Made by a program: the position numbers and the translations under genes. The notes under the pieces are model-generated. The model searched no databases, was not told the DNA's origin, and was given only the letters and a program-made list of their open reading frames with translations. A stretch of DNA of 64,000 nucleotides from the IMG/VR virus record IMGVR_UViG_3300005614_000001, positions 52,929 to 116,928 of that record. One strand, 5' to 3'. Every line of letters starts with the position of its first letter. The first letter of the stretch is position 1. The DNA is from a virus. Lineage: Duplodnaviria > Caudoviricetes. Shown one piece after another: positions 2,434-38,603 of the stretch.

Positions 2434-3840
2434 TTATTCAAATGAATATCCCATTGCTTGATAATGTGCAATTTCTTCCGGTGTAAGTTCTAATTCCTGC
2501 CCTACAGAAAGCCCATTTTCTCCATGTTTCCAGTGGCTGGCGTTTTGAGCAAATATTGCACGTTTCCTGGTAAGAGGATTTTTAGAATGAGTTAATTCTT
2601 CTGTACTTTTACCAGTTTTTTTCTTCAGAGCATTAAATTTTCCCTTGTTCTTTGGGTTTATATGTATACCGCTTGCTGCTTCAGGTATCTCCATACCATC
2701 TTCTGCTTTTCCGCCTCCTGCTATAAAACCAAAATATTTCTTTTGTTTAGGGGTAAGAGGATGCCCTTGTGCAGTTCCATCTCTTAGTATCTCTTTTGCT
2801 TTTTCAGGACTTAAAGAGCCTCCATTTGCCATTGTTCTATCATCATGTGTATCTGGTGCATAAGTTCTGTTAGCTACCTGACCCATCCACTTCCCACCAG
2901 TTTGACCCCCATATTCAAATGGCATATAATCCTGTATTGGGATTTGTTGGGAATAGTCGTGTCTTATATTCCCCAGTATCTGGGTATTTGATTGAGGGTG
3001 AAAGTTTTGTCTCTCCTCTCTGAACTGATCATAACTTCTATTCACCGGAAAACCATTGTAAGTTTCCGGAAGAGAGTTCAGTAGTTGGGGAATTTGCGAG
3101 CTATTGTACCCATAAGGATCAATAGAATAAGAATCAGGCTTACCATAGCTATTATAGGTTGGAACATAATTAAACCCCCGCATAGGGTATTGCTTTTCTC
3201 TGTTCACCGGAGTAGCTACTGTAGCTCTGTTTATTCTATTACCATATATATCTACTTCCGGGAGGGTATTACTCGCGGGAGGATTATATATTGGTTGATT
3301 TGGAATATCTTCTGTTACCTGTATATTATGCTTTCTATAGCTTCTTTGTGTATAGTCATCTGCTACTCCACCATCTGCATATATTTCCCCACCATATTTG
3401 AATATAGCCTGGCTTCCTGTACCTTGAGAGTATTGGGAGTCTGTTAACTGGTTATAAGGTCTTATTCTCCTTGACTGGTGTTCTGGTATCATTGCATCTG
3501 CAAACTGTAAACCTGCAGCAAGTAAATCGCCAGTACCTGGGGTAGTAAAGGAAAAACCTTTCTTCTTTGGAGTTTGTTTATTTCCATCTATAGGTTGAAA
3601 GTTTGTTTGTTGATTTTGGTCCTGCATTCCTTGCATCTGGTTATTATCCTGTATTCCTTGATTGATAGCCATAGGAGAATGCCAGTTAGGATCTTGTTGA
3701 TACTGGTTTTGATATTGCTGCCATGGATAGAGACTATATCCATTATCTGCTATAGGCATCATATTACTATCAGGGGGAAGAGTTGGAATTTGCATTTTTG
3801 CACTGCCTCTTTTCTTTGGTTTAATCTTTTTACTTTTCAT
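2434..3840 (-). CDS. Cargo/internal virion protein, low complexity with xxGG repeats
   Basis: 468 aa, Q/N/P-rich. Contains the modules LSPEKAKEILRDG...LTPKQKKYFG and GIHINPKNKGKF...RKRAIFAQNA, and lies directly downstream of the muzzle gene. Confidence 0.55.
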   Translation of the reverse strand: MKSKKIKPKKRGSAKMQIPTLPPDSNMMPIADNGYSLYPWQQYQNQYQQDPNWHSPMAINQGIQDNNQMQGMQDQNQQTNFQPIDGNKQTPKKKGFSFTTPGTGDLLAAGLQFADAMIPEHQSRRIRPYNQLTDSQYSQGTGSQAIFKYGGEIYADGGVADDYTQRSYRKHNIQVTEDIPNQPIYNPPASNTLPEVDIYGNRINRATVATPVNREKQYPMRGFNYVPTYNSYGKPDSYSIDPYGYNSSQIPQLLNSLPETYNGFPVNRSYDQFREERQNFHPQSNTQILGNIRHDYSQQIPIQDYMPFEYGGQTGGKWMGQVANRTYAPDTHDDRTMANGGSLSPEKAKEILRDGTAQGHPLTPKQKKYFGFIAGGGKAEDGMEIPEAASGIHINPKNKGKFNALKKKTGKSTEELTHSKNPLTRKRAIFAQNASHWKHGENGLSVGQELELTPEEIAHYQAMGYSFE

Positions 3841-3844
3841 ATTA

Positions 3845-6800
3845 TTATTTATATGATGTTTGTGTAGGGAATAATGTAAACTGTGACAATAGCTTTACAT
3901 CACTTTTATTATCCAGGATATGTCTTACTTTTGCATTCTTACCCCTGATAGTATCTTTCCTAAAGCTCCTGGTACTATAATCCAGGTTATCTGTATTCAG
4001 CACTTTATTAGTCATAGATAGATCACAACTATCTGAAAAGAATGCCTCTGTATTTCCATTACTTATATTCCAGAAGGTGTTATACTGGTAGATATTATCT
4101 GTCTTGGTAACTAATATATCCTTTGAATCACTATTGAATTTAGGGTATTTTAAATATGCTGATAAGTCATTCTGTGGTTTTGGGATAAGATTTAATACCC
4201 CGGTACACTGATAATCATTAGAGATGATGGACTTATTAAAGTAGTCATTAGTACTATAATAATTATTCAAACTTGTATACTTCCTGGATACACAATAATC
4301 TCTTACAGATTGCAGGATTTGATCTTCTGCACCTTGGAACACCAAAGGGTATTCTAATATGTATGGATATTGTTTACCATAGAAGTTATTAAATACAGAG
4401 AATGTTTGATTATGGTTCCATAATGTAGCACCTGTAGCAGTATTATTTCCACTCTGGAAATAGTTAGCAAATGGCACATAATAGTTTGGGAGATAACTAT
4501 GATAAGCTATCCATCCCCCTGTTTTAAAACTATAAGATATGCTCCAGCTTTTATTACAGAAGTACTTAGGGTCTGTAAGCTGTATTTCTATTAAAGGTTG
4601 ATTACATATTACATTTCCTTGTGCTAACTGGTTAGTTGGGGTGTCATTTAAAGAAGTATATGGATTAAAATAGAACTTTCCATTATCATAAGTAATAGCA
4701 TCAGAAAGTGGAATATAATCCAGTTTGGTGATGATAAGCCTTTGATAGAACATATCATATACTCCATGTAACCCTACACCAGAAAAGTGATTATCTATAT
4801 CTACTGCCGGGAAGTATTTGTTTATATTAAATGGAAGGAATTGAGAGAACCACTTATCCATCCCATTACTTGTGATGTCGGTTACTTTACTTCCCTGTAG
4901 CAGTAATACTTCTCCTCTTACTGCATCTATAAATATATGTCCAAACTCTGTCCTTAAAAGAAATTTATGCTGGCTCCCTGCATATCCTATATCTGTTTCA
5001 GATAGGTCTATTGGTTGCTGAGAGAATAGTTCAGAGTTCCCAAGATATGCCTGTTGTGGGAGAGATGTATTTACTACTGTAAGAGCATTATATATCTGGC
5101 TCTTATTATCAAATCTAACCAACACTTCTCTGTTCTCTATAGTATCTATTGCAGTAAGCCCGCCGTAAGCTTTTGGAAAATCATGGTATGCTGCAGGTTT
5201 ATACACCAACCAGTTATTCTTTGTTTCCTCCAGGGTGCTCTGGTCACTCCATATAGCTCTATTAGGGAAGTTAGTGAGACAAGGTTTATTAGGGTCATAA
5301 TCTTCCCTTAAATGTCCAAAATAGTCTTCTTTATTTTGCTTAGAATAGCTTTGGTTATAGTTATAAGTATTATCATTTGCTATAGAAACAAATGCCTCCT
5401 GTACCCATTCATCTGGAATGGTGGAGGATACATGTGGGTAGAAATCTCCTTCCTTGCTATTAGTTGCCTGGCGATAATCTACATTTACTTCACTTTCTAC
5501 AAAGAAATAAGGAATGCCGTATACAAATAAATACATCAACCCTTGTTCATATAACTCTTTACTTTTGAAGTTATCCAGGTTGAGGTTCCTTACCCCAAGG
5601 TTATTGAGTATCTCTTTTAGAATATCGAAGGTTATTTCCATTGCCACTACCCCTGCATACATCACCTGTACTGCATTAGCATCTATATTAGTGGTGATGG
5701 CCCCAACCTTACTTTGAATTATTTTAGCTATATCACTCCCTATCTTAACTGGTCTGGTAGAAAACCAGAACATCGGGTAGGTGAAATTGGCTATTTGATC
5801 ATATTCTATATCCGTCTGGTCTGCATCCAATACTGTATTTTCATCAAATATTGGAAGCTTTGTTTTCAGTGCAAACCTGTTAATGAATATATCTCCTCCA
5901 AATACTGTAGGGATAGATGTAAATGGAGTTCCGTCACTTTGATAAAGAGGTGAATAATACCCTGTACTTATAGTTTCATAAGAATATATCTGCCCCCATT
6001 GGTTAAGGAGCTGTCTTTTTATACTACCATAGTAAGAGGATATATTAGACTTCCTTACAGTCTCCGGGATACGGTTTATACTATTATCCTCCTGGTATGC
6101 TGCATAGCTATCCAGATAGGCATTATAAGCCACCACCTTATCAAAATCCTCTATTGTAGATGGTGAAGATACATTTAGGGCCTCCAGGTCTGCTTCTGTA
6201 TTTATGCCGCTATAAATATTTTTAACCTCATTATTTGCAGTAATAAAAGCACCAATATTACCTGCTATGTACACCTGATAAGACTCTTGTTTTAATGAGT
6301 CAAAAGTTATATAAACAGGGGTTCCGTGAACAGATGTATTTACTTTTAATTTATTATTTAATGGGTCACGAGTGGCAGCATCGAAGTTATTATATTCAAA
6401 TATAACTGAAGTCCCACCAGCCTGTGTGCTGGAAAAGAACTGGAGTGAATTTGTTATATCTTGTTGATTACCACTTATTAATAGAAATGTATAAGTTCCA
6501 CAATCAAAGGTGGTGGAGGGAACCCCCGTAGTTGGATCTATACAGGGAGACATATTTATGTCCATTAACTGCAGTGTACCAAGCTTTACCCCAGTTGCAT
6601 CCAGGTAGTCATATGTATCACCTATAGTAGGGAGTACTTTAAACTGATTAGTGCAGTTAAATATATATACCTGTGGTCCTGTATAAGAGGAATTCAGTAA
6701 TTCTGTAGATATAGAACTATCAGATACAGTAGTTGTTTTTGCAGAAAGGAAGAGATTAAAATAAGTATCCCACAAATCTGCATTTGTATAAGAGGAGATA

Positions 6801-27501: not shown

Positions 27502-30500
27502 CTAAAATAATTTGTTCTTTTTCTGAGTGAATAAGTTAAACCCGGAAGCAAATAAATTCCTTGCTCCTTGTTTCTTCTCTTTATTGAAATAATATTTGAA
27601 CCTTGGATCTGTTTCCAATGTCGTAACCTTCCCCATAGGAGCTAAGTGATCTGCCATAGCTATAGCAAGTGATGCGGCTACACAATTATGAGAAACTATA
27701 TCATTTACTGTATATGAATGATCTTCTTCTACTTCTATATTATAAACTTCTTCAGATGAGGAATAGACATCTATTGATTTTATAGGAATTATTATTCCTT
27801 CATCTATAACTCTATAGTTTTTTCTCTGAGATCTTTCCTTAAGATTTTTAAACTTCTTAGAACTACCTGGTATAGAATTCAATATTTTATTTATACCTTC
27901 TATATTTTGAATGTCCAGTCTATACTGTTCTTTTGAGTTTGGATTTTTCTGTTTATTAATATTTCCAGAACACCATATACCCTCGTCAAACATTAATCTC
28001 CTTATTTGTTTTATCAGATGTGTATATATACCAGATACCTCTATTGTTTCTCTGAAATTTATAGACCCTGGTGCCTTAGTTGATTTTTGATGACCATCTC
28101 CTTCTAAAAATCCTAATATTAATGGTAAAAGTCCTTTTGAGTTAAATAGAGGATCTTTTATAATTTTCTCCCCTCCCACTTTAATACTTATATTTTCATT
28201 TATTATATTATTAAATGTAGTGCAATTAAACTCTAAGTTGTAAGCAAATTTATCTTTCACCTTATATATTCTTGGGAGTTTTCTCTTTGATTTACATATA
28301 ATATTATCTTTTTTTAAGTGATTATAAGAGGAATATGTAATTGGAGAAAAATCATCCACTTCTTCTAAAAGAGATTTTATATATTCTGCTATATGCAACT
28401 GATTCCCCTGAAAAGTTATTCTTACAGTATTTTTATGTTTATGCCCATCAGATAAATACCATCCTAATATATATAAGTATCTCCAGTTTAAATTACACTT
28501 TTTTAAATCTTTTCTAAATGGAATTAAAAGATAATCATTCTTATTTATATCTTTTGCCTCTTTCCATTTGAGATCTCCTATTGTAAAATTTTTAAAGTAA
28601 TTTTTACCGTTACCTTTTTTTATCTCACTTATTAATAAAGGGTGATTTTCTGTACATGTAAATTCCTCAATACCTAATGGTTTAATTATATATTTATCTT
28701 TTTTGGAAACAGAGTTAAAAATATCCGTCACATTTTTGTATTTACCAGTATGTGTTAATACTCTATCCCCTATTTTTAAATTTTCTATACATTTATATCC
28801 ATCAATACAAAGAACTTTTGCCCCCTTTGTAAAACATCTATCAAAGTTCCCTGTATCATTAAACTTAATAATCTCTTCCAGGAGCATTGCATCCAATACC
28901 CTGGTTACACCAGTAACTTCTTTTATAATAGAACCTTCTTCATCCTTTTCCTGGTATATTACCTGGTCCAGGTATCTCTTTAAGCAATTATTTAAATGAT
29001 CTATTATCTTCTGTGATGAACGATGTACTCCATATTCCCTGGTAACTTGTGAATGAGGAACTACTTCTTTCAACCATTCAGGTTGACGTTCCAGGTATCT
29101 TGCATCCCCTTTTGCCTTCATATAATCTATGAAAGATATTTCATCATTTTCACATAGAGTCCTGGCATTATAAAATTTTATAAGTAATCTTGCCTGTTCA
29201 TGCCAGGTATCTTTACTATCTGGTCTTGCTACATATGAGGCTACAAACATATCCTGGAACTTATCTCCGGCTATATCATGCATTCTCTTATAAATATATA
29301 CTGCCCCAAGAGAGTCTGAATACTCTGACTTTCCCTGTCTATAAGGATCTACTCCGGCAACATACAGGCCAAATGGAGGGTTCTGCATTGGCATCTCATA
29401 TATTACTATTGGAGCATTCTTATTATCATTTGGTTTTGTTGGGAAGGAACCAACCGGGAGAGCATCTGTATGTTCAAAGATTATCTTCTCCCCATCATGT
29501 GCCAATAATACCGGGATGCCAGTTCTTCCATTTGCAAATATCCTGCCCTTCTGTGCAAGTGCTGCCTGGGTATTGAATATATTAAAAGATGCTGTAAGAA
29601 AACATTCGTCTGGAGTATAAGGATAATACATTACAGCCTTAAGATATGCCTCTTGGTCATTGGCATCTTTAGCTGTTTTACGTTCCTCATCTATTATCTT
29701 CTTAGCTTTTTCAAGATCACTCTTCTGAAAGTTAAGATTATAAAGTTCACTTTCTTCCGGGATATCTATTTGTTTTTCTTCCTTTAACCATTCCCCAAGC
29801 TTACAGTCTACTTTTGCCTCCATTCTATAACTACCTGGAAGGAATAATCCATACTTCTTTTTCTCTTCTCCAAACTCTACTGCTAAGAAATTGTAAGCTT
29901 CTGGATTATAAAATATCTTTTCTGCATCACTTCCTTTTTCAAATGCACCACCTGTACCAACCAGTAGGGGTGAGCATCTCCACCCATATGGAGATGTGAA
30001 CGCCGGGATGGCTGCCTCAAGACATCGTAGGAAAAGAAACTTTCCTATTTCATCAATTATGAATTCAGTTGCAGTAACCCCTGCTACTGCTTCTGTATTT
30101 TTACCATCATCTAAGTTACGTGGTAAAATAGTGGACCATGGTATACGATTGCCACTTTTATCTTTTATTCCTAAAGTAACCTGTCTCTTCCAATCATTTT
30201 CTATTCTACCCCATTTAAAATATGGGTGAACATTATTTAATCCTTTATCTATCTTATCAGCTATAAGTTTTAAATCCTTATCGTTACCTGCAGAGATAAT
30301 ACTTTCAGACCCCTCAAGTATTGTAGCTGCTCTCCCTATAATGGATGATTCAATCTCACTTTTGGAAAATCTTCGACTACCTACAGCGCACAACCCCTTT
30401 TTCTCTCTCCTGGCTTTTAACCTATATTCTGCAAGTTGCCATTCATTGTCTCTGAGAAGGGGCTTTCCTAATATTCTTTTTATGAACCCTGTATTTTTAT

Positions 30501-30693
30501 TCTCAAGATCCATATGTATATTCCAATGATTGGTATGCCAGTATAACCATCCATCTATGTACACTCCATTTACAAAGAATCCATTTTCTATTTTGTCTAT
30601 TTCATTCTGAAAAAAGGCATCATACTCCTCTGACTTTTCATCAGGGATGGATTTCATATTTATAAAGAACTCTTGTGTAGTTGTAAAGTCCAA
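27502..30693 (-). CDS. terL: Terminase large subunit containing an intein
   Basis: GSRRFSKS Walker A, FIIDEIGK Walker B, GTGG coupling motif, AGVDPY nuclease motif, NFDR; about 679 aa after splicing. Confidence 0.92.
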   Translation of the reverse strand: MDFTTTQEFFINMKSIPDEKSEEYDAFFQNEIDKIENGFFVNGVYIDGWLYWHTNHWNIHMDLENKNTGFIKRILGKPLLRDNEWQLAEYRLKARREKKGLCAVGSRRFSKSEIESSIIGRAATILEGSESIISAGNDKDLKLIADKIDKGLNNVHPYFKWGRIENDWKRQVTLGIKDKSGNRIPWSTILPRNLDDGKNTEAVAGVTATEFIIDEIGKFLFLRCLEAAIPAFTSPYGWRCSPLLVGTGGAFEKGSDAEKIFYNPEAYNFLAVEFGEEKKKYGLFLPGSYRMEAKVDCKLGEWLKEEKQIDIPEESELYNLNFQKSDLEKAKKIIDEERKTAKDANDQEAYLKAVMYYPYTPDECFLTASFNIFNTQAALAQKGRIFANGRTGIPVLLAHDGEKIIFEHTDALPVGSFPTKPNDNKNAPIVIYEMPMQNPPFGLYVAGVDPYRQGKSEYSDSLGAVYIYKRMHDIAGDKFQDMFVASYVARPDSKDTWHEQARLLIKFYNARTLCENDEISFIDYMKAKGDARYLERQPEWLKEVVPHSQVTREYGVHRSSQKIIDHLNNCLKRYLDQVIYQEKDEEGSIIKEVTGVTRVLDAMLLEEIIKFNDTGNFDRCFTKGAKVLCIDGYKCIENLKIGDRVLTHTGKYKNVTDIFNSVSKKDKYIIKPLGIEEFTCTENHPLLISEIKKGNGKNYFKNFTIGDLKWKEAKDINKNDYLLIPFRKDLKKCNLNWRYLYILGWYLSDGHKHKNTVRITFQGNQLHIAEYIKSLLEEVDDFSPITYSSYNHLKKDNIICKSKRKLPRIYKVKDKFAYNLEFNCTTFNNIINENISIKVGGEKIIKDPLFNSKGLLPLILGFLEGDGHQKSTKAPGSINFRETIEVSGIYTHLIKQIRRLMFDEGIWCSGNINKQKNPNSKEQYRLDIQNIEGINKILNSIPGSSKKFKNLKERSQRKNYRVIDEGIIIPIKSIDVYSSSEEVYNIEVEEDHSYTVNDIVSHNCVAASLAIAMADHLAPMGKVTTLETDPRFKYYFNKEKKQGARNLFASGFNLFTQKKNKLF
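27685..28836 (-). mobile_element. 384-aa intein with LAGLIDADG homing endonuclease in TerL
   Basis: NFDR|CFTKGAKV ... CTENHP (block B) ... LGWYLSDG / LGFLEGDG (LAGLIDADG) ... VYNIEVEEDHSY..VSHN|C; very AT-rich. Confidence 0.92.
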
Positions 30694-32141: not shown

Positions 32142-32460
32142 CTTCTATGGCTTTTTGTATATCAAGATCCTCTTGTTCAGTAGAAACTGCAAACCATTTT
32201 AAAGGACGCTGATCATTTGGGTTATATTTATTGTGCATCTCCAATCCACAATTACTGGAAAGGGAAGCTGTTTTTAATTTAAGGAAGCAACCACATGAGG
32301 AACATTTACTGAATGTATCTATCTCTCCTGGAGTAGTGTTCATTTCACACCCTATACAGATAGCCATTCTCTCCTTCTGTGTCTGCTCTATTAAGCTCTT
32401 TAGTTCCTTTGGGGGAAAGGTGCTATTCCTCACTCCCTCAAGTATCTTCTTAAAGTCCAT
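32113..32460 (-). CDS. Zn-binding protein
   Basis: RMAICIGC...CSSCGCFLKLKTASLSSNC...W motif. Confidence 0.65.
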   Translation of the reverse strand: MDFKKILEGVRNSTFPPKELKSLIEQTQKERMAICIGCEMNTTPGEIDTFSKCSSCGCFLKLKTASLSSNCGLEMHNKYNPNDQRPLKWFAVSTEQEDLDIQKAIEDAEQQEKPR

Positions 32461-32788
32461 TTGTTTTGGTTTTTAAATATTCTATTTCTGAAGTGGCAGA
32501 TTCCAGTTTCTTTATAAGGGTGGTTCTTTTTATATCCCCTTCTTCTAAAGATTCCAGCCTGGAGAGGTAAGAAGAGATAAACTTTTCTAATAGTTCTATT
32601 CTCCTGTTTACTTTCCCCATCCTTATTTTAAACTTTCCCAGCCCTGACACTTCTATACTACTGGTAGATGACATATTATCATATACACTTTTCCATTGCC
32701 ACCTTATAACTGCATCCACTACTTCTTCCGATAGAGACAGTAGCTTTGCTGTTTGTTTAGCTTTCTGCTCCAGGGTTGAGGGTGTCAT
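32450..32788 (-). CDS. HU/IHF-like protein
   Basis: LSLSEEVVDAVI...SIEVSGLGKF. Confidence 0.65.
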   Translation of the reverse strand: MTPSTLEQKAKQTAKLLSLSEEVVDAVIRWQWKSVYDNMSSTSSIEVSGLGKFKIRMGKVNRRIELLEKFISSYLSRLESLEEGDIKRTTLIKKLESATSEIEYLKTKTNGL

Positions 32789-33137
32789 TTATTATAGTTA
32801 TTTCTATTTTAAAAGATGGAGAGGAGAAATCCGGGAGTATGATAGGATTGACCTTTATCTTTCCTTCTTTCTTTACCAGGATGTTTAACTTCTGCAGCCG
32901 GGAGCTCATATTATTAAATGAGAACTTACTGCTTTGGAATGTTCTTATAAACTCTTCCCTCACCGGGGGAGTAGTGATGGTACCATTAATTGCAGAGAAA
33001 GCAACCAGGTCTATCTCAAGTGGTTTAACCTTTATATTGTTTACTTTAAACAGTACTCCATAATACCTTTTGGCTACTTCAAACTTTGAAGGAACCTGTA
33101 TTTGTATCTTCTCTGGAGAATACTTTACTTCTTTCAT
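32757..33137 (-). CDS. Winged-helix DNA-binding protein
   Basis: NNMSSRLQKLNILVKKEGKIKVNP wHTH-like segment. Confidence 0.5.
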   Translation of the reverse strand: MKEVKYSPEKIQIQVPSKFEVAKRYYGVLFKVNNIKVKPLEIDLVAFSAINGTITTPPVREEFIRTFQSSKFSFNNMSSRLQKLNILVKKEGKIKVNPIILPDFSSPSFKIEITIINDTLNPGAES

Positions 33138-35093: not shown

Positions 35094-35123
35094 AAATTAA
35101 AACAGCCGCAGATTAGCGGCTGT
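35094..35123 (-). terminator. Intrinsic terminator (minus strand)
   Basis: Perfect 8-bp ACAGCCGC/GCGGCTGT stem followed on minus by TTTAATTT. Confidence 0.6.
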
Positions 35124-35302: not shown

Positions 35303-35333
35303 CAAATATACAAAGGGGGTATGACACTACAAA
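35303..35333 (-). promoter_or_regulatory. Bacteroidota promoter TTTG-N19-TATATTTG pointing antisense into the tRNA-like pair
   Basis: CAAATATA 35303-35310 and CAAA 35330-35333. Confidence 0.65.
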
Positions 35334-35473
35334 ATTTTTTTCTATTTTCTGAAAACTTTTATATACATAAAACATCTTACTACTCCTTCCACAACCCCCT
35401 CTCATGTTTAGGGAGGTGCCAGTCACCCCGCCTATTGAATAATCATTGTTTAACATTTAAAATTGAAAAAGCT

Positions 35474-35833
35474 ATGAATTTGGCTAAAGTAACAAAAGTT
35501 GGAGAAAAGGCATGTTTTGACATTGCTGGAAATCGCATTGCCCTTGGAGGGTTAACAGACATTAAAGTGGGTTCTTATGTTGCCTACCGGGAGCAGACAG
35601 TTACCAACAGGACTAATCCTGAGACTAGTAAGTTAGAAGAGCTGGCTCCTGAAGCTTACTGGGTGAATAAGATTGCTACAGCGGTGTTTAGTGACCGTAC
35701 AGAGGCTATCCTGGCAGTTAATGAAGGCAGTATCATGGCTGCTGAATCTAAGCTGGTAATTGCCCAGCAGGCTGCTAAGATTGCACAGTCTTATGACATT
35801 CCTGCATCTGTGCTGGAATCTTTGGGCATGTAA
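35474..35833 (+). CDS. First early-arm protein (119 aa, start MNLAKVTK)
   Basis: The track ORF starts at 35321, but an AT-rich leader precedes the ATG at 35474; higher GC than neighbours; followed by a terminator. Confidence 0.6.
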   Translation: MNLAKVTKVGEKACFDIAGNRIALGGLTDIKVGSYVAYREQTVTNRTNPETSKLEELAPEAYWVNKIATAVFSDRTEAILAVNEGSIMAAESKLVIAQQAAKIAQSYDIPASVLESLGM

Positions 35834-35856: not shown

Positions 35857-35895
35857 AGTGTGCTCTTCGTGATGGTGGAGCACACTTCTTCTTTT
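35857..35895 (+). terminator. Intrinsic terminator
   Basis: AGTGTGCTC...GAGCACACT followed by TCTTCTTTT. Confidence 0.6.
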
Positions 35896-35976
35896 GTTGA
35901 GGGTATATATTCTATAGTAATATATTCTATTATATTATAGTATATAATAAATAATAACTTGATAAGTGTAAAAATT

Positions 35977-36010
35977 AATAACAATTGTTAGTAAATAAAT
36001 AACAATTGTT
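35977..36010. repeat. Two direct copies of AATAACAATTGTT (palindromic core AACAATTGTT), 21-bp period
   Basis: 35977-35989 and 35998-36010, just upstream of TATATTTG (36034-36041) and the RepL-like gene. Confidence 0.7.
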
Positions 36011-36057
36011 TTCTTTTTGTCCTACATTATACATATATTTGCACAAAATAATATATA

Positions 36058-36480
36058 ATGAAAGATAAATCAACAAGATCTCCTAACATTAAGTCTTACC
36101 CTGAACATGAAAGTAACCCATTCCCTATGGATAACCTATTAGAGCAGCCTGATTATACTGTTCCTGGATTACATATAGGGGAGAAATGTGTTGCTTTTAG
36201 TAACAAGTATCCAAATGTTATGTACACCCTGGATAAGCCTGGGATGAAGGGGTTATTGTATATAACATCTAAATTAGTTATAGGGGTGCATGAAGTGTGT
36301 ATATCTCAGGTAGAATTCAACGAGTATGGTAAGTATAAACAATCTAATAGGTATGCTTACTATAAAGCTTTAGATCAGTTATTGGAGACTGGGGTTATTG
36401 CCAGGAAGAAGAATTATAATAATTGCTTCTTTGTGAACCCTGAAGTGATGCAGGCTACTGTTGAATTCTTCTATAAATAA
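36058..36480 (+). CDS. RepL-like winged-helix replication/regulatory protein
   Basis: YYKALDQLLETGVIARK...FFVNP C-terminal motif; N-terminal ESNPF. Confidence 0.65.
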   Translation: MKDKSTRSPNIKSYPEHESNPFPMDNLLEQPDYTVPGLHIGEKCVAFSNKYPNVMYTLDKPGMKGLLYITSKLVIGVHEVCISQVEFNEYGKYKQSNRYAYYKALDQLLETGVIARKKNYNNCFFVNPEVMQATVEFFYK

Positions 36481-36491
36481 CTCCTAATTAC

Positions 36492-36800
36492 ATGAAAGAT
36501 ACTGATATATATGGTATTATTTATGCTTGGGTTATGAAGAGTAAAGAAATTGAAATTGGCCCTAAAGCACTGTATGCTCTTCTCTGTACCTATAGAGAGG
36601 CATCTAATAATACCTGTTTCCCTGGAGATAGTAAGCTTGCTGAACAGCTAATGGTTGACATTAGGACTATCAGGAGATATATGCTTGCACTTCAACAAGC
36701 CAGAATAATAGAGAGAATTACTCTATTTGATCCTCACTCAGGGAAGAAAAAAAGAACCATTCTCCTTACCGATATAGTGAAATTTAAGGAAAAAGCATAG
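36492..36800 (+). CDS. HTH_36-type replication-initiator-like wHTH protein
   Basis: KALYALLCTY...TCFPGDSKLAEQLMVDIRTIRRYMLALQQARII. Confidence 0.75.
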   Translation: MKDTDIYGIIYAWVMKSKEIEIGPKALYALLCTYREASNNTCFPGDSKLAEQLMVDIRTIRRYMLALQQARIIERITLFDPHSGKKKRTILLTDIVKFKEKA

Positions 36801-36861
36801 GACATGTATGTCCTAATATATAGGACACAGGTGTCCTAAGGTATAGGACATGGGTGTCCTA
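36798..36861. repeat. Three 18-bp palindromes TAGGACA-N4-TGTCCTA at 23-bp period (iteron/operator array)
   Basis: 36798-36815, 36821-36838, 36844-36861. Confidence 0.9.
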
Positions 36862-37147
36862 TATAACATTACCATAATAACAATACAATAGAACAATACC
36901 AGGGAAAGTTTATCAAAATTTTGCAGACTGCAGGGAGCAATTTGCCTATCCCGGCAGTAAGTAGTTCCCAATAGCAGTAAATAATTATTGGTTCAAAGTA
37001 ATTCCCAACAGTCTATACTATCTGTAGGGATACTATAAGCGTCAATTCCTGGTAACTAATAAGAGATAATTACTACTATAGTATCAAAATACAACGCTTA
37101 TACTACCGGAGTAGATAGTATAGCACACAAATATTAACTTTTAGTTA

Positions 37148-37165
37148 ATGTTCCACGTGGAACAT
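37148..37165. promoter_or_regulatory. parS: parS centromere-like site
   Basis: Perfect palindrome ATGTTCCACGTGGAACAT; the core TGTTCCACGTGGAACA is the symmetric form of the bacterial chromosomal parS consensus TGTTNCACGTGAAACA. Confidence 0.85.
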
Positions 37166-37318
37166 AGTAAATTTATTCCATTTGTAGGTATTAAAAGAGC
37201 TGAATACTACGTATATAGTCTGAAATCAAACTAATTGAGTAGTTAAATAGCTACGGGTACTGATATAGTATAGCATTAACAACATATTTTTATATATTTA
37301 CACTTAAAATCAATTATT

Positions 37319-37540
37319 ATGGTACTTATAGCTATACTGCTATCTTTGGGGGTTGTTTCTCTAAATCTGATAGCTTATTATATATTGAAGAAAACTACAT
37401 CAATGTATACATTCAGGCAGTATATCATAGTGATCTGGAGTGGAGATTATGAAATCCTTTTAGTTTTGAATATGTTTCTTATTTCAGCACTCTTTATCTC
37501 TTTTGCAGGTTGTGTACATTTACTATTATATCCACAATAA
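37319..37540 (+). CDS. Small membrane protein
   Basis: 73 aa with two hydrophobic segments. Confidence 0.5.
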   Translation: MVLIAILLSLGVVSLNLIAYYILKKTTSMYTFRQYIIVIWSGDYEILLVLNMFLISALFISFAGCVHLLLYPQ

Positions 37541-37575: not shown

Positions 37576-37893
37576 ATGGAAAAACTACCAATAAAATTCA
37601 AAGAAAAATGGATAGCTGCTTTAAGGAGTGGTGAATACAAACAAGGAAAATTCACTATGTATGACTCAATAACACAAACATATTGTTGTTTAGGAGTTGC
37701 TGAAATAGTGGCTGGTAATAACATAGAAACAATTGGAAAAACATATTCTCCGAGGAGGTTAAATCGTAAATCAAAAGTTCCCGAATTACTAAAATCTACT
37801 ACATCAAGCATATCAGATATACTTATGGGCATGAATGATAGTAAAGATAAAACATTCAATGAAATAGCTGATTGGATAGAAGAAAACCTATAA
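37576..37893 (+). CDS. Early protein, W..ALRSG.Y.Q / CCLGV family (copy 1)
   Basis: KWIAALRSGEYKQG...YCCLGV...MND....F.EIADWIE. Confidence 0.7.
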   Translation: MEKLPIKFKEKWIAALRSGEYKQGKFTMYDSITQTYCCLGVAEIVAGNNIETIGKTYSPRRLNRKSKVPELLKSTTSSISDILMGMNDSKDKTFNEIADWIEENL

Positions 37894-38267: not shown

Positions 38268-38603
38268 ATGAAACAGAAAGCAAATAAATTACCAAAAAGG
38301 TTTAAAGAAAGATGGGTAAAGGCTCTCAGAAGTGGGAAGTACAAACAGACTGCTGGACGTCTATACAACAAAGAGGAAGATGGGTATTGCTGTCTGGGAG
38401 TAGCTTGTGCTATTTCAAGAGTCTCCAAGAACAATCTAAGAGGATATATACCTCGTAATATAAAAAAGAAACTTCCTGAAAGCTTTCCTAAAATATTATT
38501 GGAAACGGATGATATGGGAACTACAGTCAGAAAATTAATTAGAATGAATGATAATGGAAAAAGTTTCAAATACATTTCCTACTATATTGATCGGTATTTA
38601 TAA
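38268..38603 (+). CDS. Early protein, W..ALRSG.Y.Q / CCLGV family (copy 2)
   Basis: RWVKALRSGKYKQ...YCCLGV...MND..KSF. Confidence 0.7.
   Translation: MKQKANKLPKRFKERWVKALRSGKYKQTAGRLYNKEEDGYCCLGVACAISRVSKNNLRGYIPRNIKKKLPESFPKILLETDDMGTTVRKLIRMNDNGKSFKYISYYIDRYL

Follow-up and report, generated by a model that had tools for sequence, protein, structure and literature searches.

What is a chromosomal partition site doing at the head of the early genes of a phage? The question is raised by a 64,000-nucleotide stretch (hereafter the window, meaning this stretch at its full length) of the IMG/VR virus record IMGVR_UViG_3300005614_000001, in which the region at positions 35977-37165 hosts a perfect copy of parS, the site recognised by the bacterial partition protein ParB. 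The record is complete (116,928 bp, with direct terminal repeats), and the window corresponds to its bases 52929-116928. Terminase, portal, major head protein, large virion protein and DNA polymerase were identified by matches to PHROG profiles. The portal protein is merely 25-29% identical to those of gut Crassvirales and of Leptolyngbya phage Lbo-JY46, and 53-62% identical to those of a large set of uncultured phages of 100-125 kb. Late genes run leftward from ~34.9 kb, early/replication genes rightward from 35.3 kb, and the minimum of the cumulative GC skew falls at 34-36 kb. The window phage is a distant environmental crAss-like phage, and the stretch 35977-37165 is the head of its early (replication) arm. 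No match emerged when the region was searched, as DNA and as protein, against the phages of GenBank. A sequence-only reading had interpreted the region as a plasmid-like maintenance cassette, made up of a RepL-like gene, an HTH_36-like gene, palindromic iterons and a host-type parS. All the sequence features listed in that reading are present, at the coordinates reported below.

A perfect chromosomal-type parS in the early arm

Two features define the site:

37149-37164: perfect chromosomal-type parS, TGTTCCACGTGGAACA, an exact match to the consensus; the perfect palindrome extends over 18 bp (37148-37165)
37134-37148: TTAACT-TTT-AGTTAA inverted repeat abutting parS, read from the sequence

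The 16-mer fits the parS consensus TGTTNCACGTGNAACA at all the 14 specified positions. It is the sole match in the window, even when three mismatches are allowed, and the sole one in the complete genome, for which base composition predicts ~1.2e-5 exact copies. CpG is strongly avoided genome-wide (observed/expected 0.22), GpC being normal (0.94), and the only CACGTG of the genome, where ~11 are expected, sits inside parS. Chance does not explain the presence of the site, which has been kept against strong CpG avoidance. When the non-coding region was compared to Chitinophagaceae genomes, no DNA homology was found beyond ~20-38 nt centred on parS. Capture of the region from host DNA was rejected, as parS alone matches genomes of the host family.

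The likely host and its chromosomal parS

Relatives of the portal gene reside in metagenome-assembled genomes (MAGs) labelled Sediminibacterium and Cytophagales, and in a few implausible Firmicute or Actinobacteria bins. One more resides in a 4.83-Mb contig of a cultured isolate, Chitinophaga sp. YR573 (NZ_FOJF01000001.1). Here, homologues of the DNA polymerase (42% identity), portal (48%) and major capsid (51%) proteins are encoded within ~60 kb (G082:C8, ~3,647,000-3,707,000; matches L230, L256 and L257), and the region has the same two-arm layout as the window phage. The region looks like a crAss-like prophage integrated in the isolate. It has no parS of its own. An open reading frame (ORF) for a tyrosine recombinase (3,766,901-3,767,428; 35.7 bits) is found ~60 kb beyond the capsid gene. 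The host of the window phage is most likely a Chitinophagaceae-type Bacteroidota bacterium, as suggested by the company its relatives keep.

The genome of YR573 contains exactly two parS, 60 bp apart, both identical to the phage 16-mer, and encodes a canonical ParB (108.9 bits; gene at G082:C8:4106157-4106435). Exact, clustered parS, from one to four per genome, have been identified in 36 of 61 genomes of the same family, the Chitinophagaceae; position 5 is always C or T and position 12 always G or A. A control motif of the same composition was found in none of the 61. The phage 16-mer, identical to both YR573 sites and found with the same variants in the 36 genomes, is a host-type parS, as had been surmised from the sequence alone.

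parS in related phages

Relatives were taken as the best 80 of ~588 IMG/VR loci, with portal identities of 53-61%; 30 portal proteins were aligned (alignment A1), and parS was mapped on a quick portal tree. Whole records were scanned for parS and for the same-composition control at ≤1 mismatch. A parS-like site was found in 16/50 and 5/30 related records, hence in 21/80, five of the sites being exact, and the control motif in 0/80. Eleven of the sites lie outside any long ORF. In 15 of the 44 loci reaching far enough, a palindrome (≤2 mismatches) is located 4.1-5.8 kb upstream of the portal gene. The core GTTyCACGTGrAAC is kept in most of these junction palindromes, and two or three more of the 44 loci have decayed copies at the same place. 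In all the seven relatives in which ORFs were mapped, the site occupies either a ~450-bp divergent intergenic region between the arms or the spacer that comes first in the early arm. Variation follows that of chromosomal parS: position 5 is C or T, position 12 is G or A, and the outer positions change too. Positional conservation, proposed in the sequence-only reading as a check, is borne out to the extent that most sites reside at the junction of the arms or where the early arm begins.

Sites are hosted in at least three unrelated flanking contexts. The flanks in G020 and G024 are quite different from those of one large group of relatives, and in the lineage of G032 and G033 an exact site lies inside an early gene. 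Phages sharing parS share neither early genes nor flanks with the window phage, and the early genes of the window (33.2-42.6 kb) have no homologues in the loci of the relatives. To explain its distribution on the quick portal tree, the site must have been gained or lost five times or more, and the window phage is grouped with three relatives which lack it. In this clade, parS is a recurrent, loosely position-bound and dispensable element.

The large group deserves a separate description. Here the site is embedded in a conserved intergenic architecture, which includes an invariant CCCACCC..CCCCAAAG(T)TACAA block and GTAAA-N-TTGACA repeats. The ~450-bp divergent region of these phages carries CCAAATTTATTTTTT, one to three GTAAAcCTATAGcTTGACAa repeats, parS where present, and then a C6/G6-rich element of ~90 nt. 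The structured region was located at ~5480-5930 in L128, L135, L159, L179 and L180, and around 1501 in L203-L222. It is a candidate origin or early-promoter complex. An Rfam search of the junctions of the relatives identified no family, the microRNA matches being far below threshold.

The late arm of the relatives is headed by a Rep-O-like winged-helix gene, recognised by a weak Pfam match below the cut-off, and by an HU-like gene. Homologues of the two are found in the window at 32757-33137 and 32450-32788, respectively; Pfam searches with the late-arm head genes of the window gave nothing. Given the position of these homologues of the first late genes, the junction of the window phage has been enlarged by lineage-specific DNA.

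No parS was found in six named Crassvirales genomes, a set which does not include prototypic crAssphage (NC_024711), nor in Leptolyngbya phage Lbo-JY46 (0/7 in all). The notion of parS as a general trait of Crassvirales was consequently rejected, though on a small sample. In the crAss-like contigs L040, L049 and L097 the 16-mer lies at other places of the genome (within a VPRGT reading frame in L049), and these contigs were judged uninformative.

At least 120 IMG/VR contigs (L002-L121) carry an exact copy of the 16-mer, versus three for a reversed control of the same composition, an over-representation of at least 40-fold. A ParB_N domain of any kind was detected in just 2 of the 50 carriers tested, and 28% of the listed sites lie outside ORFs of ≥100 aa, versus 11% of random positions. 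Many of the carriers listed are complete genomes of 37-106 kb with direct terminal repeats.

Partition and integration genes

The complete genome yields no match to ParB_N, HTH_ParB, AAA_31 (ParA) or Phage_integrase at E≤1. The lack of parA, parB and integrase genes, first noticed in the window, thus extends to the whole genome. A self-contained parABS cassette has parA and parB on the element itself, and the window phage has neither. No canonical ParB (ParB_N above threshold) was found in the 30 relatives tested, and no integrase in the 21 tested. What the window phage carries is what Bacillus phage phi29 carries, a host-type parS in a genome lacking ParB.

A putative role for host ParB

According to the explanation we favour, the ParB-CTP (cytidine triphosphate) clamp of the host would load at the phage parS, and this would tie the phage DNA to the ParA/SMC segregation and condensation machinery of the cell, in the neighbourhood of the presumed phage origin. 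The benefit would most likely be the distribution of non-integrated phage genomes to daughter cells in the course of slow, delayed or carrier-type infections. On the basis of the sequence data, and by analogy with known phages, we regard the combined statement, loading of host ParB plus its use in segregation or maintenance, as somewhat more likely than not. Binding of host ParB to the site, considered by itself, appears more probable than that. Segregation or maintenance is the leading candidate purpose, suggested by analogy and unproven. We infer ParB binding and the segregation role, as well as the role of the winged-helix genes and palindromes as parts of an origin or replicon.

Initiator-like winged-helix genes gather at the arm junction together with an HU-like gene and the skew switch, which gives the junction the look of an origin zone. 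RepL-like genes are found at the arm junction both in the window phage and in its relative G003. In a broader scenario, an integrase-free crAss-like clade infecting Chitinophagales would have repeatedly acquired, or kept, a host centromere by its origin at the arm junction, the genome behaving as a mini-chromosome which rides on host ParB/ParA/SMC. This scenario is a tentative one, and we hold it to be rather doubtful.

Several points weigh against the explanation we favour. About 60% of the relatives, including the three nearest ones (G001-G003), have no junction parS, and the site is therefore dispensable; its position, moreover, is only loosely conserved. The window phage has a single parS, versus five in phi29. 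Measured from the start of the early arm the site is 1.8 kb away, and from the conserved winged-helix gene of the late arm 4 kb, in lineage-specific DNA. The skew switch is no proof of an origin, since it coincides with the switch of gene strand. The palindromic repeats of the region fit repressor operators as well as iterons. Host identity is deduced from MAG binning and one prophage, and the episomal carrier state of this phage is purely conjectural. The single maintenance cassette envisaged in the sequence-only reading is weakened by comparison, as parS of the relatives occurs without RepL-like and HTH_36 genes, and G003, the only relative with a RepL-like gene, has no junction parS.

Should host ParB act as proposed, a concrete mechanism would be available for the long-term, non-lysogenic persistence (carrier state) of crAss-like phages. 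A host centromere recurrently selected at the arm junction provides a specific hypothesis for the persistence of these phages over months in the absence of integrases. The window phage would combine parS with a RepL-type initiator, as in the phage-plasmid proposed for crAssphage, and the principle known from phi29 would be extended from a small Firmicute phage to large phages of Bacteroidota. The excess of the 16-mer in viral contigs which rarely carry ParB supports the notion that borrowing of host ParB may be a widespread, under-described phage strategy.

Winged-helix genes and palindromes

The features found upstream and around parS are the following:

35102-35123: bidirectional GC-rich hairpin terminator
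35858-35896, + strand: terminator-like hairpin, GTGTGCTC ... GAGCACAC followed by a T-run, read from the sequence
35980-35989 and 36001-36010: two AACAATTGTT palindromes with centres 21 bp apart, both upstream of the promoter-like motif; they form a candidate operator
36018-36024: TGTCCTA half-site beside the promoter-like motif
36034-36041, + strand: TAnnTTTG, Bacteroidota-type -7 motif, 17 nt before the ATG at 36058
36058-36480, + strand: gene for a 140-aa winged-helix protein, remotely related to the RepL family of plasmid initiators and shorter than its members
36492-36800, + strand: 102-aa HTH_36 (Pfam PF13730) protein, 28.3 bits versus a cut-off of 25
36798-36815, 36821-36838 and 36844-36861: TAGGACA-N4-TGTCCTA palindromes, three in number and spaced by 23 bp; the first begins at the HTH_36 stop codon
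36862-37318: non-coding stretch of 457 bp containing short direct repeats as well as nested inverted ones; a candidate for an origin or a regulatory region
37013-37042, pairing with 37094-37123: nested inverted repeats
37292-37540, + strand: promoter-like ATATATTTACAC, which is nearly a copy of 36033-36044, with the early ORF that comes next (37319-37540; 73 aa, hydrophobic)

The hairpin at 35858-35896 closes the ORF 35321-35833 and parts it from the region downstream. It was not flagged by the consensus terminator scan because its loop is 12 nt long; in the region of interest, the scan added just the first palindrome, read as a hairpin. With 62 copies on the + strand, TAnnTTTG shows no genome-wide enrichment, and the motif alone is not significant. 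A sigma-70 promoter scan did not rise above the shuffled background, and the model is of the wrong promoter type for Bacteroidota. Rfam and tRNA scans of the region gave nothing credible, and no tRNA was found by ARAGORN anywhere in the window.

The 140-aa protein has no match to Pfam RepL (PF05732), and no RepL was found at E≤10 in a six-frame search of the genome. A word-based homologue search retrieved the protein itself alone. A second contig encodes an identical protein. Searches for related loci with the 140-aa protein, the 102-aa protein and TerL as queries found none. An exhaustive HMMER search brought up 16 remote homologues (E<1e-3). For six of 15 homologues the best-scoring Pfam family is RepL, and two exceed the RepL cut-off of 20.3 bits, P0122 (21.7 bits), which is the best homologue (E 3e-9, 39% identity over 74 aa), and P0130 (20.5 bits). 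An AlphaFold2 model built with the alignment of the HMMER homologues has a winged-helix fold (predicted local distance difference test, pLDDT, 80.7). Foldseek searches with the model returned weak generic matches led by CodY, MarR and CRP, with probability up to 0.97 for winged-helix regulators; Rep and initiator structures came at ranks 10 and 28, and all E-values were >0.01. Sequence and model taken together, RepL-like winged helix-turn-helix is a fair description of the resemblance. The term stands by virtue of transitive homology and predicted fold, and does not extend to family membership, which is not established, as the protein itself has no RepL match.

The HTH_36 assignment of the second gene is correct, its score making the product a true Pfam member. 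Residues 2-77 match PHROG profiles of a replication initiation protein and of a DnaD-like helicase loader, profiles which are 308-383 positions long. The protein resembles the N-terminal winged helix of initiation and DnaD-like proteins, without their C-terminal part. A sequence search against PDB returned noise.

A RepL-like gene occurs also in the relative G003 (L241, G003:C1). It encodes 141 aa (3480-3905; 26.9 bits to alignment A2), and is the first gene after a ~900-bp divergent region, oriented with the late arm. A ATTTATCGATAAAT-type palindrome at 3403-3432 precedes the gene, and no parS is found nearby.

Within the genome, both sets of palindromes are confined to this locus. There are no other copies of AACAATTGTT in the 117-kb genome (two versus 0.46 expected), and the three TAGGACA-N4-TGTCCTA units are the only such palindromes in it. 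The latter are presumably an operator or iteron array for one of the two winged-helix proteins. The regular array that the sequence-only reading had called iterons is real; its function is a different matter, since it resembles the tripartite operator of a dimeric repressor at least as much. Iterons are initiator sites of ~17-22 bp, repeated directly and in tandem at an origin; each of the three units here is an 18-bp palindrome, as in operators.

The two genes and the palindromes may accordingly be viewed as an early transcription-control module, made of a repressor or antirepressor and a lambda-like tripartite operator, rather than a plasmid-type replicon, and unrelated to the function of parS. 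The spacings, 23 bp for the three 18-bp palindromes and 21 bp for the two 10-bp ones, are typical of operators bound by dimeric helix-turn-helix proteins, and the TGTCCTA half-site by the promoter-like motif suggests autoregulation. The small size of the HTH_36 protein, the regulators heading the structural matches of the 140-aa protein, and the occurrence of parS in relatives which lack both genes point in the same direction. On the other hand, RepL is the nearest sequence family of the 140-aa protein, the HTH_36 protein matches profiles of replication initiation and DnaD-like proteins, and the replication arm of prototypic crAssphage is headed by a RepL gene close to the predicted origin (PMC10983915). 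We estimate that transcription control falls just short of an even chance. Being concerned with the cassette only, it is compatible with the binding of host ParB to parS.

Other readings of the site

A different possibility is that host ParB binds the phage parS for a purpose other than segregation. ParB could load SMC, and organise or resolve replicating DNA; it could be titrated, to the detriment of host segregation; or its sliding clamps could modulate the adjacent early and late promoters, and so act as a switch of timing or of the carrier state. Many relatives have the site right inside the ~450-bp promoter region from which the arms diverge, much as chromosomal parS are found close to the origin, and these phages have no ParA of their own. 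A second host DNA-binding protein, Spo0A, is used by phi29 to control transcription (PMC2731898). A single site per genome, however, is a poor sponge unless the copy number is high. Chromosomal ParB, in turn, is usually a weak transcriptional silencer. Such roles are not separated from segregation by sequence, and we consider them, as the main purpose of the site, unlikely.

The palindrome could also be the target of a phage-encoded protein other than ParB, its identity to parS being due to convergence. Several small DNA-binding proteins are encoded nearby, and ParB searches based on Pfam models could miss a very divergent protein. Yet all the specified consensus positions match, the variation among relatives stays within that of chromosomal parS, the phages sharing the site have neither early genes nor flanks in common with the window phage, and neither ParB_N nor HTH_ParB was detected at the permissive threshold used, all of which makes convergence very improbable. 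A palindrome arisen by chance, or left over as a neutral trace of host DNA once captured, would suit a single-copy site missing in the nearest relatives, but is scarcely credible for a sequence expected ~1e-5 times, kept against CpG avoidance, recurrent where the control is lacking in 80 relatives and in 61 genomes of the host family, and flanked by DNA without host homology beyond the ~20-38 nt centred on it.

Additional features of the genome

The ORF of the large terminase subunit, TerL, of the window (27502-30693, - strand) encodes 1063 aa, whereas relatives have ~675 aa. TerL of G002 aligns with residues 1-660 and 968-1063, and the ~300 residues in between have no counterpart; they therefore represent a candidate intein or inserted domain. 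The TerL gene of G003 has a separate gap of ~1 kb near codon 120. Downstream from parS, two paralogous early genes (37576-37893 and 38268-38603, + strand) both match phrog_18067, a family of unknown function (E 4e-15 and 3e-17), the matches running through the N-terminal ~45 residues.

Comparison with known systems

Phage-plasmids of the P1/N15 type likewise combine a replication-initiator gene and a centromere-like site on a phage genome. They encode their own ParA and ParB, and use a plasmid-specific parS; the window phage has neither protein, and its site conforms to the chromosomal consensus. SGI1 provides a further parallel, being reported as a mobile element stabilised through the ParAB of another replicon, the parABS system of an IncC plasmid (PMC10954446). 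As described there, the system exploited is that of a helper plasmid, not of the chromosome, and SGI1 is an integrative element, not a phage.

Prototypic crAssphage (Carjivirus communis) is similar in several respects, as it has a RepL-type gene at the head of the replication arm beside the predicted origin, an origin at the switch of strand and GC skew, and no integrase; persistence without lysis has been proposed (PMC10983915). Neither parS nor ParB is mentioned in that preprint, which describes crAssphage as a phage-plasmid. The window phage differs from it, as the 140-aa protein is not RepL at the Pfam level, and portal identity to gut Crassvirales is ~25%. A literature search retrieved no paper combining Crassvirales with parS in the sense of a site for host ParB.

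The parS/ParB-CTP/ParA/SMC system of Chitinophagaceae chromosomes has a site identical to that of the phage over 16 bp. Chromosomal sites are presumably origin-proximal, and the phage site similarly lies at the GC-skew switch where the arms diverge. It differs in being single-copy, on a virus, and without parA or parB in cis.

The closest precedent is phi29. That a virulent phage can borrow the ParB of its host is already on record for phi29, which carries five parS for host Spo0J, which takes part in segregating the phage genome into the prespore (PMC2731898, citing Meijer et al. 2005). The 19-kb phi29, a protein-primed podophage, infects a spore-former and benefits by becoming entrapped in the prespore. 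The uncultured window phage is a 117-kb crAss-like phage with a presumed non-sporulating Bacteroidota host, and has one site, located by initiator-like genes at the arm junction or early-arm head. Like the window phage, phi29 and its relative Nf carry the parS of the host chromosome and have no ParB or integrase of their own. In phi29 and Nf the partition protein of the host is exploited to move or keep the phage genome, and the same principle may, by analogy, operate in the window phage.

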